In this document: positions 17,997-58,553 of the stretch, one piece after another
Position numbering within the stretch: the stretch's first letter is position 1
How the letters are laid out: every line of letters starts with the position of its first letter
Origin: Escherichia coli
GTDB lineage: Bacteria > Pseudomonadota > Gammaproteobacteria > Enterobacterales > Enterobacteriaceae
Strand: one strand, 5' to 3'
NCBI RefSeq assembly: GCF_016026235.1
Contig: NZ_CP065613.1
Length of the DNA: 64,000 nucleotides
The notes under the pieces: generated by a model
Database searches by the model: none
Seen by the model: the letters and a program-made list of their open reading frames with translations, nothing else
Told to the model about the DNA's origin: nothing
Position numbers and translations under genes: made by a program

Positions 17997-18244
17997 AGTA
18001 AGTCCTTTCGTAAAACTTTCGTTTCATTTCGTTTTGCCTATTAACGCCTTTCTATTAAGCAAATGCAAGCCCACCTTGCCCATTGACGCAAGCTACTCTC
18101 GTTTCAGTGACTTTCATTATGTTTCTTTTGTGAATCAGATCAGAAAACTATTATCTTTCGTTTTATTTTTATCTCACCATGACGCAGTATCAACTGAAAC
18201 AAAACGAAAGATTAATATCGCAGTAATCTGAACTGGAGAGGAAA
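17997..18244. promoter_or_regulatory. divergent agaR / kbaZ promoter with multiple CTTTCGTTT-type repeats (AgaR operator-like)
   Basis: Repeats visible: cctttcgtaaaactttcgtttcatttcgtttt, tatctttcgttttattttt, aaacaaaacgaaagatta. Confidence 0.6.
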
Positions 18245-29438: not shown

Positions 29439-29838
29439 CCAGATGAAAAATTTGCTCAAAATGTTTAAATTAACTTATTCAACAGTCACGCATTATATTA
29501 AATAACATTTGACTGGGTTGAACATAACGCCAATAGCAAAAGGAGTTATGTTCAACAATTTAATTTTAGATATACATATAACTTGTTCTATTAATAAACC
29601 ATCTCGTATTCTGACTCGCCCCTTGGCCCAGCAAAGTCAGGCATTTATACTCTTTTTAACACATAGAAAATTCATATAAATATAATAAAAACATCAAATA
29701 TTTGCATATAAATATAATCTTAAAGTTTAGCCTATTTAATGTTCAATGAAATATTTCTACCTGTATAATCTTTAAAGATGTTGAACATATATTCACATTA
29801 AATATGATTATGTACTTGTTACAAGGATAAGGTTATAA
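29439..29838 (+). promoter_or_regulatory. AT-rich upstream region of yraH fimbrial operon with direct and inverted repeats
   Basis: 400 bp strongly AT-rich; direct repeat catataaatataat twice; inverted repeat ttgaacataac...gttatgttcaa. Confidence 0.4.
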
Positions 29839-43897: not shown

Positions 43898-44893
43898 ATG
43901 GAGCTGCTCTGCCCTGCCGGAAATCTCCCGGCGCTTAAGGCGGCCATCGAAAACGGCGCAGATGCTGTTTATATCGGGCTAAAAGATGATACCAATGCCC
44001 GTCACTTCGCCGGCCTTAACTTTACCGAGAAAAAATTGCAGGAAGCGGTGAGTTTTGTCCATCAACATCGCCGCAAACTTCACATCGCGATTAACACTTT
44101 TGCGCATCCGGACGGTTACGCCCGTTGGCAGCGCGCCGTGGATATGGCGGCGCAGCTGGGTGCCGACGCGCTGATCCTCGCCGACCTCGCCATGCTGGAA
44201 TACGCCGCCGAGCGTTATCCGCATATTGAGCGCCACGTATCGGTGCAGGCTTCGGCGACCAATGAAGAGGCGATTAACTTTTATCATCGCCATTTTGACG
44301 TTGCCCGCGTGGTGCTGCCGCGCGTGTTGTCGATTCATCAGGTGAAACAGCTGGCACGGGTCACACCTGTACCACTGGAAGTGTTTGCTTTCGGCAGCCT
44401 GTGCATTATGTCGGAAGGCCGTTGCTATCTGTCGTCGTATCTGACGGGTGAGTCGCCTAACACCGTGGGCGCGTGTTCTCCGGCCCGTTTCGTGCGCTGG
44501 CAACAAACGCCGCAGGGGCTGGAATCCCGCCTGAACGAAGTGCTGATCGACCGTTATCAGGACGGCGAAAACGCAGGTTATCCGACGCTGTGTAAAGGGC
44601 GTTATCTGGTGGACGGCGAGCGCTATCACGCGCTGGAAGAACCAACCAGTCTCAATACCCTGGAACTGCTGCCGGAGTTAATGGCGGCGAATATTGCTTC
44701 GGTGAAAATTGAAGGCCGCCAGCGTAGCCCGGCGTATGTCAGCCAGGTGGCGAAAGTCTGGCGTCAGGCTATCGACCGTTGTAAGGCCGATCCGCAAAAC
44801 TTCATACCGCAAAGCGCGTGGATGGAGACGCTCGGGTCGATGTCCGAAGGCACGCAGACCACCCTTGGCGCGTATCACCGTAAATGGCAGTGA
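43898..44893 (+). CDS. ubiU: peptidase U32-family protein, O2-independent ubiquinone hydroxylation
   Basis: ORF track 43871..44893; start at MELLCPAGNL, 331 aa. Confidence 0.85.
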   Translation: MELLCPAGNLPALKAAIENGADAVYIGLKDDTNARHFAGLNFTEKKLQEAVSFVHQHRRKLHIAINTFAHPDGYARWQRAVDMAAQLGADALILADLAMLEYAAERYPHIERHVSVQASATNEEAINFYHRHFDVARVVLPRVLSIHQVKQLARVTPVPLEVFAFGSLCIMSEGRCYLSSYLTGESPNTVGACSPARFVRWQQTPQGLESRLNEVLIDRYQDGENAGYPTLCKGRYLVDGERYHALEEPTSLNTLELLPELMAANIASVKIEGRQRSPAYVSQVAKVWRQAIDRCKADPQNFIPQSAWMETLGSMSEGTQTTLGAYHRKWQ

Positions 44894-44901
44894 GAAGAGC
44901 A

Positions 44902-45780
44902 ATGAAATATTCCTTAGGGCCAGTGCTGTGGTACTGGCCAAAAGAGACGCTGGAAGATTTTTATCAGCAGGCCGCCACCAGCAGCGCCGACGTGATTTAT
45001 CTTGGTGAAGCGGTATGCAGCAAGCGCCGGGCAACCAAAGTTGGCGACTGGCTGGAGATGGCAAAATCGCTCGCAGGAAGTGGCAAGCAGATTGTGCTCT
45101 CCACGCTGGCGCTGGTGCAGGCATCCTCTGAACTGGGCGAACTGAAACGCTATGTTGAGAACGGTGAGTTTCTGATTGAAGCCAGCGATCTCGGCGTGGT
45201 GAATATGTGCGCTGAACGCAAACTGCCGTTCGTCGCCGGGCACGCGCTGAACTGCTACAACGCGGTGACGCTGAAAATATTGCTCAAACAGAGCATGATG
45301 CGCTGGTGTATGCCGGTGGAGCTTTCCCGCGACTGGCTGGTGAATCTGCTTAATCAGTGCGATGAGCTGGGCATTCGCAACCAGTTTGAAGTGGAAGTCC
45401 TGAGCTACGGTCATCTACCGCTGGCCTACTCCGCTCGCTGCTTTACCGCGCGTTCGGAAGACCGCCCGAAAGATGAGTGTGAAACCTGCTGCATTAAGTA
45501 TCCGAACGGGCGCAACGTGCTGTCGCAGGAAAACCAACAAGTGTTTGTACTCAATGGCATTCAGACCATGAGCGGCTACGTTTACAACCTCGGTAACGAG
45601 CTGACATCCATGCAGGGATTGGTTGATGTGGTCCGCCTGTCACCGCAGGGTACTGACACTTTCGCGATGCTCGACGCCTTCCGCGCTAATGAAAATGGCG
45701 CTGCGCCACTATTGTTGACGGCAAACAGCGACTGTAACGGCTACTGGCGGCGGCTGGCAGGACTGGAGCTGCAAGCCTAA
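44902..45780 (+). CDS. ubiV: peptidase U32-family protein, partner of UbiU
   Basis: ORF track 44884..45780; start at MKYSLGPVLWYWPKE, 292 aa. Confidence 0.85.
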   Translation: MKYSLGPVLWYWPKETLEDFYQQAATSSADVIYLGEAVCSKRRATKVGDWLEMAKSLAGSGKQIVLSTLALVQASSELGELKRYVENGEFLIEASDLGVVNMCAERKLPFVAGHALNCYNAVTLKILLKQSMMRWCMPVELSRDWLVNLLNQCDELGIRNQFEVEVLSYGHLPLAYSARCFTARSEDRPKDECETCCIKYPNGRNVLSQENQQVFVLNGIQTMSGYVYNLGNELTSMQGLVDVVRLSPQGTDTFAMLDAFRANENGAAPLLLTANSDCNGYWRRLAGLELQA

Positions 45781-45910
45781 GTAAATATGCTCGTCATACT
45801 TCAAGTTGCATGTGCTGCATCTGCATTCGTTCACCCCAGTCACTTACTTATGTAAGCTCCTGGGGATTCACTCTCTTGTCGCCTTCCTGCAACTCGAATT
45901 ATTTAGAGCA

Positions 45911-45983
45911 CAGCTCACTTTGTTAACAACTTTAACTACTCTTTAATGCAGTATTAAAGATTAATCGGTAACAAAGTGAGCTG
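45911..45983 (+). promoter_or_regulatory. nested inverted repeat immediately upstream of yhbW start codon
   Basis: 15-bp perfect arms CAGCTCACTTTGTTA (45911..45925) / TAACAAAGTGAGCTG (45969..45983) enclosing inner hairpin ctttaat-gcagt-attaaag; ATG at 45986. Confidence 0.5.
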
Positions 45984-45985
45984 TT

Positions 45986-46993
45986 ATGACTGATAAAACC
46001 ATTGCGTTTTCGCTACTCGATCTGGCCCCCATTCCCGAAGGTTCTTCAGCGCGAGAAGCATTCTCCCACTCTCTCGATCTCGCCCGTCTGGCTGAAAAGC
46101 GCGGCTATCATCGCTACTGGCTGGCAGAACACCACAATATGACTGGCATTGCCAGTGCTGCCACGTCGGTATTGATTGGCTATCTGGCGGCGAATACCAC
46201 CACGCTGCATCTGGGGTCTGGCGGCGTGATGTTGCCTAACCACTCACCGTTGGTCATTGCCGAACAGTTCGGCACGCTCAATACACTCTATCCGGGGCGA
46301 ATCGATTTGGGGCTGGGTCGTGCGCCAGGTAGTGACCAACGGACAATGATGGCGCTGCGTCGCCATATGAGCGGCGATATTGATAATTTCCCCCGCGATG
46401 TCGCGGAGCTGGTGGACTGGTTTGACGCCCGCGATCCCAATCCGCATGTGCGCCCGGTACCAGGCTATGGCGAGAAAATCCCCGTGTGGTTGTTAGGCTC
46501 CAGCCTTTACAGCGCGCAACTGGCGGCGCAGCTTGGTCTGCCGTTCGCGTTTGCCTCACACTTCGCGCCGGATATGTTGTTCCAGGCGCTGCATCTTTAT
46601 CGCAGCAACTTCAAACCGTCGGCACGACTGGAAAAACCATACGCGATGGTGTGCATCAATATTATCGCCGCCGACAGCAACCGCGATGCTGAGTTTCTGT
46701 TTACCTCAATGCAGCAAGCCTTTGTGAAGTTGCGCCGTGGCGAAACCGGGCAACTGCCGCCACCGATTCAAAATATGGATCAGTTCTGGTCGCCGTCCGA
46801 ACAGTATGGTGTGCAGCAGGCGCTGAGTATGTCGTTGGTAGGTGATAAAGCGAAAGTGCGTCATGGCTTGCAGTCGATCCTGCGCGAAACCGACGCCGAT
46901 GAGATTATGGTCAACGGGCAGATTTTCGACCACCAGGCGCGGCTGCATTCGTTTGAGCTGGCGATGGATGTTAAGGAAGAGTTGTTGGGATAG
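45986..46993 (+). CDS. yhbW: luciferase-like (flavin-dependent) monooxygenase
   Basis: 335-aa ORF. Confidence 0.85.
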
Positions 46994-48456: not shown

Positions 48457-48508
48457 AATCGGGGCTGTATATATTATTTTACAGATTGTGTTCGCTGTTC
48501 AGCGATGA

Positions 48509-55880: not shown

Positions 55881-58553
55881 TTAAGCGATGGTACGTTGGA
55901 TCTCGATGATTTCGAATACTTCGATCACATCGCCAGTGCGGACGTCGTTGTAGTTCTTAACGCCGATACCACATTCCATACCGTTACGGACTTCGTTAAC
56001 GTCATCTTTGAAGCGGCGCAGGGACTCCAGCTCGCCTTCATAGATAACCACGTTGTCACGCAGAACGCGGATCGGGTTGTGACGTTTAACCACACCTTCG
56101 GTAACCATACAGCCTGCGATGGCACCAAATTTCGGCGATTTGAACACGTCACGAACTTCCGCCAGACCGATAATCTGCTGTTTCAGTTCCGGAGACAGCA
56201 TACCGCTCATCGCCGCTTTCACTTCGTCGATCAGGTTATAGATGACGGAGTAGTAACGCAGATCCAGGCTTTCCGCTTCAATCACTTTACGTGCAGAGGC
56301 ATCAGCACGTACGTTGAAGCCAACCAGGATGGCGTTGGACGCCGCAGCCAGGGTGGCGTCGGTTTCGGTGATACCACCTACGCCAGAACCGATGATCTTC
56401 ACTTTAACTTCGTCAGTAGACAGTTTCAGCAAGGAGTCGGAGATCGCTTCCACAGAACCCTGTACGTCTGCCTTCAGGACGATATTCACTTCGTGAACTT
56501 CGCCTTCGGTCATGTTGGCGAACATGTTCTCGAGTTTAGATTTCTGCTGACGCGCCAGTTTAACTTCGCGGAATTTACCCTGACGATAGAGTGCAACTTC
56601 ACGCGCTTTCTTCTCGTCACGTACAACGGTAACTTCATCACCCGCAGCCGGAACACCGGATAAGCCGAGGATTTCCACCGGAATGGACGGACCCGCTTCC
56701 AGCACTTCCTGACCCAGTTCGTTACGCATCGCACGAACACGACCGTATTCGAAGCCACACAGAACGATATCGCCCTTGTGCAGAGTACCTTCACGTACCA
56801 GAACGGTAGCAACCGGACCACGACCTTTATCGAGGAAGGATTCGATAACCGCACCGCTCGCCATACCTTTACGTACCGCTTTCAGCTCCAGAACTTCCGC
56901 CTGCAGCAGGATAGCGTCCAGCAGTTCATCGATACCGGTACCCGCTTTCGCAGATACGTGTACGAACTGGCTTTCACCGCCCCACTCTTCCGGCAGGATG
57001 CCGTACTGGGAGAGTTCGTTCTTAACGCGATCCGGATCGGCTTCTGGTTTATCGATCTTGTTCACTGCAACCACCACCGGTACCTGCGCCGCTTTCGCGT
57101 GCTGGATTGCTTCGATGGTCTGCGGCATTACGCCGTCGTCGGCAGCAACAACCAGGACTACGATGTCAGTTGCCTGCGCACCACGTGCACGCATTGAAGT
57201 AAACGCAGCGTGCCCCGGGGTGTCCAGGAAGGTGATCATGCCGTTTTCAGTTTCAACGTGGTATGCACCAATGTGCTGGGTAATGCCGCCCGCTTCGCCA
57301 GAGGCCACTTTCGTTGAGCGAATGTAGTCCAGCAGAGAGGTTTTACCGTGGTCAACGTGACCCATGATGGTCACAACCGGCGCGCGCGGTTCAGCCGCAG
57401 CACCCGTGTCACGGTCGCTCATTACCGCCTCTTCCAGCTCGTTTTCACGACGCAGGATAACTTTGTGGCCCATCTCTTCAGCAACCAGCTGTGCGGTTTC
57501 CTGATCGATAACCTGGTTGATGGTTGCCATTGCGCCCAGTTTCATCATCGCTTTGATGACCTGAGAGCCTTTAACCGCCATCTTGTTCGCCAGTTCGCCA
57601 ACGGTGATGGTTTCGCCGATCACAACGTCACGGTTAACGGCCTGAGCTGGCTTCTGGAAGCCTTGCTGCAGGGAAGAACCTTTACGTTTTCCGCCTTTAC
57701 CGCCACGTACTGCTGCGCGTGCTTCTTCACGATCAGCTTTTGATTCAGCGTGTTTGTTGCCTTTCTTCGGACGCGCTGCTTTCGCGTTACGACCACGGCC
57801 ACGGCCGCCTTCGACTTCACGATCGCTTTCGTCTTCTGCCTGGCGAGCATGTTGAGAAGTAGTGACGTGATAATCGCTGGAATCTTCAGTCGGTTCCGCG
57901 TTATCAGTCCATTTGTTTTCTTCCGCCATACGACGTGCTTCTTCAGCAACGCGACGTGCTTCTTCTTCGAGTTTACGACGCGCTTCTTCTTCGGCTTTAC
58001 GCTTGAGCTCTGCAGCTTCCTGCTCACGGCGGGCTTTTTCAGCTTGGGCGTTTTTAGTCATATCGTCTTGTTGATTGCTCACTTTGTCTTTTTCCGCAGC
58101 TTCACGTTTCGCTTGTTCAGCAGCTTCACGCTTAGCTTGTTCTGCGGCCTCACGTTCAGCTTTTTGTTGCGCCTCGCGTTTAGCCGATTCTTCTGCCTCA
58201 CGACGGGCTTGCTCTTCCGCTTCACGCTGCGCTTGCTCTTCCGCTGCAAGGCGTTCAGCCTCTTGCGGATCGCGTTTCACAAAGGTGCGTTTCTTGCGGA
58301 CTTCGATTTGTACCGATTTGCTTTTTCCACCGGTACCAGGAATGTTAAGGGTGCTGCGTGTTTTACGTTGCAGCGTCAATTTGTCCGGGCCTGAATTTTT
58401 CTGATTCAGGTGGTCAATCAAAGTCTGTTTCTCTTGTGCAGACACAGAGTCGTCAGCAGACTTCCGGATACCTGCATCAGCAAATTGCTGTACCAGGCGT
58501 TCCACGGAGGTCTGTCGCTCTGCGGCCAGCGTTTTAATCGTTACATCTGTCAT
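55881..58553 (-). CDS. infB: translation initiation factor IF-2
   Basis: 890-aa ORF with GTPase motifs [12 protein letters not shown] / DTPGH. Confidence 0.95.

Follow-up and report, generated by a model that had tools for sequence, protein, structure and literature searches.

The spacer between ubiV and yhbW in Escherichia coli carries a nested inverted repeat, conserved across Enterobacteriaceae, which we read as a regulatory module combining a promoter layer in the DNA with a fold-back layer in the RNA, a reading to which we give a little under an even chance. What it builds on was seen directly: a repeat that is conserved, spacings around it of which some are fixed and others vary, a boundary that insertions respect and a contrast in folding between two transcript forms. 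To these it adds a predicted transcription start, a probable activator, presumed read-through from upstream and a proposed effect on translation.

A nested inverted repeat next to the yhbW start codon

Within the window, by which we mean the whole 64-kb stretch of DNA that was analysed, ubiV (yhbV; 44884–45780, plus strand), an open reading frame that matching E. coli records label ubiV, is followed on the same strand by yhbW (45986–46993), whose 335-aa product is annotated in E. coli as a luciferase-like monooxygenase of the FMNH2/O2 type. The yhbW ATG (45986) is preceded by two plus-strand arms, ACAGCTCACTTTGTTA (5′ arm, 45910–45925) and TAACAAAGTGAGCTGT (3′ arm, 45969–45984), each 16 nt long, 100% complementary to one another and spaced 43 nt apart, with the 3′ arm ending 1 nt upstream of the ATG. 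A first-pass annotation of this DNA had described 15-bp arms ending 2 nt before the start codon; the repeat itself stands, while its size and end are corrected here. Nested between the arms is a second hairpin, as that annotation had also seen, with 11-nt arms at 45937–45947 and 45953–45963 that are 91% complementary. This inner palindrome, TCTTTAAT-GCAGT-ATTAAAGA (45937–45963, plus strand), is a conserved block and carries the predicted −10 hexamer discussed below. The 3′ arm forms the yhbW 5′ UTR and ribosome-binding region, and inside it falls a Shine-Dalgarno-like GUGAG (45976–45980, plus strand), located 5 nt upstream of the AUG, in agreement with the earlier proposal that the downstream arm covers the Shine-Dalgarno region. 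The position of this motif suggests a role as the ribosome-binding site, and its distance to the ATG is fixed in all orthologues compared.

Among perfect inverted repeats of at least 16 nt with arms no more than 150 nt apart, the yhbW repeat is the sole instance in the window, where chance alone would give about 0.002 in 64 kb by our own arithmetic. The arm sequence is unique within the window, and the 75-bp hairpin corresponds to one locus per genome; a dispersed repeat or MITE was rejected, because the second match in each genome is a self-alignment of the hairpin to its other strand (54.5 bits). At 58077, an 11-mer shared with the arm was dismissed as a chance match in a repetitive region of an 890-aa open reading frame (55881–58553, minus strand), and a metagenome scan with ACAAAGTGAGNVNNTATG was swamped by chance matches, the yhbW locus accounting for 1 of 120 loci.

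Of 5426 E. coli genomes, 5423 carry the repeat, as do some 15 further enterobacterial genera, with the core of the 5′ arm, GCTCACTTTGTTA, nearly invariant across Enterobacteriaceae, so the lack of conservation in relatives that the first-pass annotation had named as counting against its proposal does not apply. The segment ACAAAGTGAG of the 3′ arm is also retained in Providencia and Brenneria, both of which lack a 5′ arm, and Erwinia has a near-copy of the 3′ arm sequence (ACAAGTGAG) with the 5′ arm absent. Since the 3′ arm is conserved in genera without the 5′ arm, its conservation does not require pairing.

Upstream insertions and a predicted promoter inside the repeat

A typical ERIC element occupies positions 45788–45910. 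It is an imperfect palindrome of 123 bp with TA (45786–45787) on one side and CA (45911–45912; TA in E. albertii) on the other; its terminal arms show 78% complementarity over 23 nt, and it contains the ERIC1R primer sequence exactly and the ERIC2 primer sequence with one mismatch. A query containing the element matched a median of six places per genome. The inverted-repeat search placed a stem-loop, ccccag...ctgggg (45834–45865), at its centre; this is the hairpin after ubiV that had been annotated as separate, and it is present, but as the middle of the ERIC and not as a feature of its own. The element sits exactly between the ubiV stop codon and the 5′ arm and is a polymorphic insertion, occurring at this site in 1417 of 5426 E. 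coli genomes (~26%); K-12 and UTI89 have no ERIC here and a ubiV–yhbW spacer of 80 bp. With ERIC elements in general it shares an imperfect palindrome of ~125 bp, the ERIC1R and ERIC2 sequences, multiple copies, presence/absence polymorphism and a location in a transcribed spacer. It is no part of the conserved hairpin, having inserted at the adjoining TA. Next to it, a T in the flanking repeat has become C in this lineage, extending the perfect stem from 14 to 16 bp.

ERIC (in E. coli and E. albertii) is one of several insertions, 100–700 bp in size, that lie directly 5′ of the 5′ arm without disrupting the module, the others being REP-like repeats in Salmonella, identified by eye, and ccdAB, on the opposite strand, in L216 and L217. 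Because these independent insertions all fall 5′ of the 5′ arm with the module intact, we conclude that everything needed for expression lies downstream of that point.

Expression of yhbW is regulated apart from that of ubiUV, the Fnr-activated operon of which ubiV is the last gene (PMC10470549). The gene is a member of the MarA/SoxS/Rob/RamA regulon (PMC4310594, PMC6561319, PMC3139621), the YhbW protein is up 77-fold with vanillin (PMC6561319), and purified RamA both shifted the Klebsiella yhbW promoter in EMSA and activated it 6.9-fold in vitro (PMC4310594), contrary to the initial impression that no regulator of yhbW had been described. The gene is not listed in the Salmonella ChIP-seq table covering all four factors, nor does it occur in the main text of an E. 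coli MarA ChIP-seq study or in the accessible supplements of a 2025 marbox screen; these lists miss many classic targets as well. A terminator scan between ubiV and yhbW found no terminator-like site, and an intrinsic terminator at the hairpin itself was rejected, as the scan called none there in the window or in K-12 and the stem is AT-rich and followed by UAUGACUG. Hairpins after ubiV are visible by eye in Brenneria and Erwinia, uncalled by the scan, and we give this correlation little weight.

Comparative alignment points to a yhbW promoter within the repeat. The GCTC of the 5′ arm lies 36 nt from a −10-like hexamer in 17 of 21 taxa and 35 nt from it in three (AATACT at offset 36 fits two of these three), the 18 nt in between are not conserved in sequence, and on its other side the hexamer is 9 to 85 nt away from the 3′ arm, depending on the taxon. 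Measured from the putative activator box, a marbox-like 20-mer in forward orientation (ACAGCTCACTTTGTTAACAA, 45910–45929, plus strand), the gap to the hexamer is 19 bp in 20 of 21 taxa. This spacer of fixed length and non-conserved sequence (45930–45948, plus strand) leads to the predicted −10 hexamer CAGTAT (45949–45954, plus strand), a weak one, with the variants CAATAT, CACTAT and AATACT; all taxa but one outlier keep the A in second and the T in sixth position. From this geometry, transcription of yhbW would start on the plus strand within 45959–45963, at about 45960–45961, giving a leader of ~25 nt. A common E. coli SNP falls at this predicted start.

With the hexamer set at −12 to −7, the centre of the 20-mer falls at exactly −41.5, which is also the centre of the micF soxbox (PMC9638938), the class II position definitions for marbox promoters being those of published work (PMC12052159, PMC10268841, PMC9638938). 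A −35 consensus is typically lacking at class II promoters (PMC10268841), and a scan of the ubiV–yhbW spacer found no consensus sigma-70 promoter and no −35 hexamer. This geometry fits a class II activator-dependent promoter whose box would sit at −41.5 and whose transcript would begin near 45960. The 20-mer agrees with the marbox consensus AYnGCACnnWnnRYYAAAYn at 11 of 14 specified positions, which is the chance level (135 such matches observed in the window, 141 expected), and its marbox PWM score of 6.9 bits lies in the top 0.11% of window 15-mers and in the bottom 5% of 87 ChIP sites. No PWM match in the 600 bp preceding yhbW scores higher than the 5′ arm; the 3′ end of ubiV holds no better candidate, and a second marbox in the 3′ arm was rejected, its reverse complement scoring 4.0 bits for E. 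coli and −0.4 for Salmonella.

With the class II promoters of MarA/SoxS/Rob/RamA (micF, fumC, lpxC P2 and lpxL P1 among others), yhbW shares a forward box over an absent −35, centred at −41.5 from the predicted start, as well as regulon membership and, in Klebsiella, activation by RamA in vitro. It differs from them in that no in vivo ChIP peak is reported and its start is predicted, and its box departs from typical marboxes in having GCTC for GCAC and AAC for AAA and in being far more conserved. A literature search retrieved no mapped yhbW start, footprint, published marbox or RNase III site. Given a predicted start inside the hairpin, yhbW's own mRNA would lack the 5′ arm; a start downstream of the upstream arm, which the first-pass annotation had named as telling against its stem-loop, is therefore probably what the gene-specific transcript has.

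Predicted pairing between the arms in RNA

As RNA, 45900–46000 is predicted to fold into the expected stem at −29.1 kcal/mol (z = −5.3), and none of 200 shuffled sequences folded as well. The double-stranded part would comprise 16–17 perfect base pairs, or ~30 bp in total counting further stacked helices, where an RNase III substrate would have some two turns of near-continuous duplex. In 11 of the 12 core taxa modelled, the mean unpaired probability from Shine-Dalgarno to AUG is ~0.55 in the predicted primary transcript against 0.07–0.23 in read-through RNA, Pluralibacter being the exception with 0.37 in read-through RNA; in the divergent Franconibacter, Mangrovibacter and 'Klebsiella' BIGb0407, read-through RNA is predicted to be no less accessible than the primary transcript. 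Both the predicted fold and this contrast support the earlier idea that an RNA stem would bury the yhbW ribosome-binding site, and cleavage of a read-through form by RNase III is possible on the modelled structure. A known RNA family was rejected, as nothing reached the Rfam gathering score in the window, where the only matches were sub-threshold (V_AS5 on the ERIC and a spurious mir-1285 on the hairpin), and eight orthologous loci gave no match. Pairing of RyhB, whose core the 5′ arm resembles, with the yhbW ribosome site was likewise rejected, the duplex energy lying at the 59th percentile of ATG windows.

So stable a stem over the Shine-Dalgarno sequence could also indicate a riboregulator acting in cis, with the whole hairpin in yhbW's own 5′ UTR, a promoter upstream in or near ubiV, and opening by heat, RNase III, an sRNA or a protein; the failure to detect a consensus sigma-70 promoter in the spacer is in keeping with this, and no measured start speaks against it. 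We nevertheless regard it as decidedly unlikely. Heat is excluded in silico, and with it the RNA thermometer suggested in the first-pass annotation, as a thermometer stem should melt at about 30–42 °C and this one stays closed throughout 25–60 °C: between those two temperatures the mean unpaired probability from Shine-Dalgarno to AUG moves only from 0.20 to 0.23, and the minimum free energy at 60 °C is still −15 kcal/mol. An RNA hairpin leaves unexplained why the 36 nt from the 5′ arm to the hexamer are fixed when the other side varies so widely; insertions of up to 700 bp, including the opposite-strand ccdAB, would separate or block an upstream promoter; the ubiV 3′ end offers no better marbox; and a stem this stable, lacking a known opener, makes the 77-fold protein induction hard to explain.

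Upstream translation is known to open ribosome sites masked over long range, as with the MS2 replicase site, and a ribosome terminating at ubiV might similarly melt the stem and transiently free the yhbW ribosome-binding site, tying yhbW translation to ubiV. The ubiV stop codon does lie 4–7 nt from GCTCAC in 13 taxa with an uninterrupted spacer, although a generally compact spacer between the genes may be all that lies behind such closeness. The juxtaposition of stop codon and arm is broken by the ERIC in 26% of E. coli genomes, by the REP-like repeats in Salmonella and by ccdAB in L216 and L217, and yet the module persists; there is, moreover, no evident rationale for co-expressing an O2-dependent enzyme with an anaerobic operon, and we consider translational coupling very improbable.

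Pairing between the arms is itself largely preserved, with 88% of cells paired across taxa. The CTCAC/GTGAG pairs follow a path from A-U through G·U to G-C, with G·U-type intermediates in five taxa, and the outer pair swaps between A-U and G-C among taxa and is mismatched in 9 of 21. Seven double-change cells were observed, compared to 3.5 ± 1.2 after shuffling, a count that none of 500 shuffles reached. Most stem pairs are invariant and several single changes are uncompensated, so that the covariation analysis proposed at the outset yields changes leaning compensatory but a weak signal.

Nearly invariant arms that co-vary at one or two positions would be expected of co-evolving protein sites too, and the arms might instead be two inverted DNA sites of one protein, over the −35 region and downstream of the start, forming the large dyad operator considered in the first-pass annotation or a DNA loop. 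This we hold to be the least probable of the alternatives and highly unlikely, since the distance between the arms varies among genera from 43 to ~125 nt with no conserved helical phase, the 3′ arm keeps its distance to the ATG and not to the promoter, and its reverse complement is a poor marbox in both species scored. The G·U-type intermediates fit RNA pairing and not DNA symmetry, and no regulator gene adjoins the yhbW locus.

Perfect complementarity between two elements with separate jobs cannot be due to chance. It could still be without function now, if a 75-bp quasi-palindrome left, for example, by an ancient inverted duplication or a palindromic insertion had its halves separately recruited as promoter and ribosome-binding site. 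The nested 75-nt hairpin matches its own reverse complement at 77% identity over its full length, most stem pairs, being invariant, are silent on pairing, and the outgroups conserve the 3′ arm without a partner, all of which would suit such a relic. We think it unlikely all the same: independent elements would not be expected to keep 13–16 perfect complementary bases over ~15 genera, the changes observed lean compensatory by the shuffling test, and the element is single-copy with no repeat family.

A two-layer model and its known parallels

In the DNA layer of the proposed module, the 5′ arm region (45910–45929) would act as a class II activator box at −41.5, overlapping the missing −35 and bound most probably by MarA, SoxS or Rob (RamA in other genera), while the inner palindrome would supply the −10 CAGTAT (45949–45954) for a start near 45960. 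Stress-induced yhbW mRNA would begin in the loop, carry the 3′ arm alone in a short AU-rich leader, and be translatable. In the RNA layer, both arms would be present only on transcripts entering from upstream, the assumed source being read-through from the Fnr-driven anaerobic ubiUV operon, in which Rho termination may intervene. Such RNA would fold into the 16–17-bp stem at about −29 kcal/mol, burying GUGAG up to the base before the AUG, and the stem would silence yhbW translation or possibly expose the RNA to RNase III. As yhbW encodes an O2-dependent flavin monooxygenase, the stem would keep the enzyme silent in anaerobiosis, where it is useless. The arm that masks the ribosome site would double as the promoter's activator site, and in its most specific form, which we advance tentatively and with clearly more doubt than the module as a whole, the model describes a 'promoter-embedded anti-ribosome-site', the same 16 bases being an activator site in DNA and, in RNA, an anti-Shine-Dalgarno sequence that silences ubiUV-derived transcripts.

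Fold-back inhibition of read-through transcripts was reportedly described for IS10/Tn10 by Davis, Simons and Kleckner in 1985 and for IS50/Tn5 by Krebs, Schulz and Reznikoff in 1986–91. In this mechanism, native transcripts without the upstream arm are translated, whereas transcripts from outside fold back and are silent. The model gives yhbW the same layout, with one arm upstream of the native (here predicted) start and the other over the ribosome-binding site. Unlike the insertion sequences, yhbW encodes a chromosomal stress-regulon enzyme and not a transposase, outside transcription would come from a defined neighbouring operon, ubiUV, and the upstream arm coincides with a putative activator site. 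RNA thermometers (ROSE, fourU) and RNase III-processed leaders (rnc, pnp, lambda N) likewise have a stem-loop that pairs with the Shine-Dalgarno region; thermometers, however, are short imperfect stems in a gene's own leader, whereas the yhbW stem has 16 perfect bp, shows no predicted opening up to 60 °C and has a 5′ arm that probably lies outside the gene's own transcript.

For yhbW, among the most strongly induced but functionally unknown members of the mar/sox/rob regulon, the model predicts a start site and the effects of mutations, and it suggests that ERIC and REP insertions, of the sort that roughly one E. coli strain in four has at this hot spot, may tune the upstream contacts of the promoter or the fate of read-through RNA. 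Even if the model is wrong, the locus warns against reading a start-codon hairpin as a leader before the transcript start is known. If it is true, it would explain how anaerobic ubiUV and the oxidative-stress gene yhbW, neighbours read in one direction but with opposite oxygen logic, avoid cross-talk across 80 bp that hold no terminator, the O2-dependent monooxygenase being made only when its own oxidative/xenobiotic-stress promoter fires. Conserved across Enterobacteriaceae, the repeat would then do on the chromosome what fold-back inhibition does in transposons. It would show that ordinary chromosomal genes also use this insertion-sequence trick, and it would represent a general way of translationally insulating tightly packed co-directional genes that have no terminator between them.

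The inverted repeat and its conservation

The spacer between the ubiV stop codon (45778-80) and the yhbW ATG (45986), both as annotated in identical E. coli records, carries an inverted repeat whose 16-nt arms, ACAGCTCACTTTGTTA (5' arm, 45910-25) and TAACAAAGTGAGCTGT (3' arm, 45969-84), are perfectly complementary across a 43-nt gap, with an inner palindrome (45937-47 / 45953-63) between them. This confirms the observation of the first-pass annotation, which had described a slightly shorter repeat enclosing a second hairpin; its interpretation, a hairpin hiding the yhbW ribosome site, is partly supported. Folding of 45900-46000, proposed there as a check, gave -29.1 kcal/mol (z = -5.3), with no shuffled sequence as stable, and the suggested RNA thermometer is excluded in silico, the stem staying unmelted from 25 to 60 C. 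No second perfect inverted repeat as large, with its arms close together, exists in the 64-kb window; the two other sizeable ones with close arms are imperfect and lie at 18153-18212 (16 nt, 94%, 28-nt gap) and 29517-29556 (15 nt, 93%, 10-nt gap).

The hairpin was found, as a single copy, in 5423 of 5426 E. coli genomes; a repeat family was rejected, since what looks like a second copy in each genome is the hairpin's self-match on the opposite strand. The one common E. coli SNP that was checked lies in the loop, outside the arms: GATTAAT becomes GACTAAT near 45961, at the predicted transcription start (L218, L219), which explains the 98.7%-identity genomes checked, the arms being unchanged in both (n = 2). 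Orthologous spacers of about 20 other taxa share the layout, including E. albertii, Salmonella, Citrobacter, Superficieibacter, Enterobacter, Cronobacter, Franconibacter, Entomohabitans, Atlantibacter, Pluralibacter, Buttiauxella and Mangrovibacter. Providencia and Brenneria, which have no 5' partner, keep the 3' arm ACAAAGTGAG as well, and Erwinia, which has no 5' partner either, keeps it almost unchanged, so that conservation of the 3' arm by itself proves nothing. Two strains carry insertion sequences nearby: in E. coli M19 (L003, ~1575-2750) an IS110-family element sits within the 3' arm, right behind GGTAACAAAG, and the yhbW N-terminus is gone, while in E2865 (L002) IS621 lies between yhbW and mtr.

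Promoter-like geometry and candidate activators

Across taxa, the nearly invariant 5' arm core, GCTC(A/G)C(T/A)TTGTTAAC, is followed by 18 nt of fixed length but unconserved sequence and then by a conserved block, (T)GCAnTAT. Counted from GCTC, the hexamer (CAGTAT, 45949-54, the predicted -10 of yhbW) lies at an offset of 36 nt in 17 of the 21 taxa and of 35 nt in three others, of which two read AATACT at offset 36; in one decayed outlier the offset is 25. The critical A (position 2) and T (position 6) of the hexamer are kept in all taxa except this outlier. Between hexamer and 3' arm the distance varies (9 to 85 nt), since an insert of about 80 nt is found there in several genera, and the distance between the 3' arm and the ATG is fixed. 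A loop fixed to the nucleotide on one side and floating on the other fits a promoter and has no reason in an RNA hairpin. The same variable spacing between the arms, together with the anchoring of the 3' arm to the ATG and its poor quality as a marbox, makes it unlikely that the arms form a dyad operator, as had also been suggested.

With CAGTAT set as -12 to -7, the 20-mer from 45910 is centred at -41.5 and transcription is predicted to start near 45960-61. Such a position, in forward orientation over a missing -35, is canonical for class II MarA/SoxS/Rob/RamA boxes (PMC12052159, PMC10268841), and the micF soxbox also lies at -41.5 (PMC9638938). No -35/-10 consensus promoter was found in the spacer, as is expected for class II promoters (PMC10268841). 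Judged from sequence, the arrangement resembles a promoter with a hairpin wrapped around it.

Contrary to the first-pass annotation, which knew of no described regulator, yhbW is listed in the MarA, SoxS, Rob and RamA networks. In vitro, the Klebsiella yhbW promoter is shifted by purified RamA, which also activates it 6.9-fold (PMC4310594); a ramA mutant of Salmonella shows a 3-fold drop in yhbW (PMC3139621), and YhbW is the most induced protein in vanillin-stressed E. coli (77-fold), even without soxS (PMC6561319). The putative box at the 5' arm has three mismatches to the marbox consensus, a match at chance frequency in the window. Scored with a PWM derived from 87 ChIP sites of Salmonella, it is the best match in the 600 bp upstream of yhbW and reaches 6.9 bits, within the top 0.11% of window 15-mers yet in the bottom 5% of real sites. 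yhbW is missing from the Salmonella ChIP table, and appears neither in the main text of the MarA ChIP study in E. coli nor in the examined supplements of the 2025 marbox screen. The activator may be MarA-like, acting at a weak site, or a different factor. Separately, the mtr promoter region holds a strong marbox-like site, ACACAATCTGTAAAA (48477-48491, minus strand, 13.2 bits), which supplementary data from the 2025 MarA screen place at -10 from an mtr transcription start. Fnr activates ubiUV from microaerobiosis to anaerobiosis (PMC10470549), so these neighbours, of opposite oxygen logic, need separate control within 80 bp.

Insertions around the module

The hairpin just after ubiV that had been described as separate exists, but belongs to an ERIC element, a 123-bp imperfect palindrome (45788-45910) that contains the sequence of the standard primer ERIC1R exactly and that of ERIC2 with one mismatch, and that weakly matches Rfam V_AS5. 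It is inserted here in 1417 of 5426 complete E. coli genomes and absent from K-12 and UTI89, whose 80-bp spacer is essentially the hairpin alone. The insertion point is the TA immediately 5' of GCTCAC; TA flanks both sides in E. albertii, and in the lineage of the window the right flank is CA, a change that turns U.G into C-G and so takes the perfectly paired stem from 14 bp to 16 bp.

At the point where E. coli has ERIC, Salmonella carries about 100 bp of GC-rich, REP-like palindromic repeats, identified by eye (L085, ~1020-1110), so that the site between ubiV and the 5' arm may be a hot spot at which small mobile repeats insert. Tenebrionibacter-group contigs carry ccdA (L216) or the whole ccdAB toxin-antitoxin pair (L217) on the opposite strand between ubiV and the module (~385-1000); in L216, about 10 bp are missing between 5' arm and -10 block. 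All these insertions lie directly upstream of the 5' arm and leave the module undisturbed; by position, they appear to mark the upstream edge of a functional unit. A self-contained promoter beginning at the 5' arm would be unaffected by them, whereas a hypothetical ubiV promoter would be pushed 100-700 bp off or blocked. Translational coupling is possible in insertion-free strains, where a ribosome terminates 4-7 nt before the 5' arm, but this juxtaposition is dispensable in many lineages.

The conserved insert of ~80 nt between -10 block and 3' arm, within the predicted yhbW leader, occurs in Enterobacter, Cronobacter, Franconibacter, Entomohabitans and Atlantibacter (L005, ~1400-1485; L010; L087; L092; L214; L215; shorter in L089) and reads ACAGCTTTCYGGC-[variable GC hairpin]-GCCAGGCTGGAAGAAGACCTTCAATCTGATGAC...GCTGT. 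It has no match in Rfam and a weak consensus fold, and may represent either a leader element of a new type or a small mobile insertion. The predicted Mangrovibacter leader (L011, ~1420-1480) contains a terminator-like hairpin, CGGGCAGATG...CATCTGCCCG, with a T run a few bases on, which may be an attenuator.

Predicted pairing of the arms in read-through RNA

An activator box and a ribosome site have separate jobs and cannot share 13-16 nt of complementarity by accident. A functionless relic is a possible alternative. Across taxa, 88% of the cells in the table of stem pairs are paired. In place of CTCAC/GTGAG, five taxa have CTCGC/GTGAG (G.U) and Mangrovibacter has CTCGC/GCGAG (G-C); at the outer pair, six taxa have A-U, six have G-C and nine have a mismatch. 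Double-change cells number 7, against 3.5 +/- 1.2 after shuffling (0/500), but most stem pairs never vary and several single changes are uncompensated, so that these counts lend modest support to selection on pairing.

A native yhbW mRNA starting near 45960 would have the 3' arm only, and RNA entering from ubiV would carry both; no terminator-like site was found between the two genes. In models, the SD-AUG region is ~55% unpaired in the predicted native mRNA and 7-23% unpaired in read-through RNA of 11 of 12 core taxa (37% in Pluralibacter), a contrast that fades in the most divergent taxa. On this reading, read-through RNA would be silenced and the native transcript would not; cleavage of the modelled read-through stem by RNase III, another earlier suggestion, is possible. 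In fold-back inhibition of IS10 and IS50, incoming read-through RNA is silent and the native transcript is not, and the yhbW arrangement may be a chromosomal analogue. The module is a well-conserved regulatory architecture and is predicted, as the likeliest case, to join an established promoter class to an established RNA logic at a new location.
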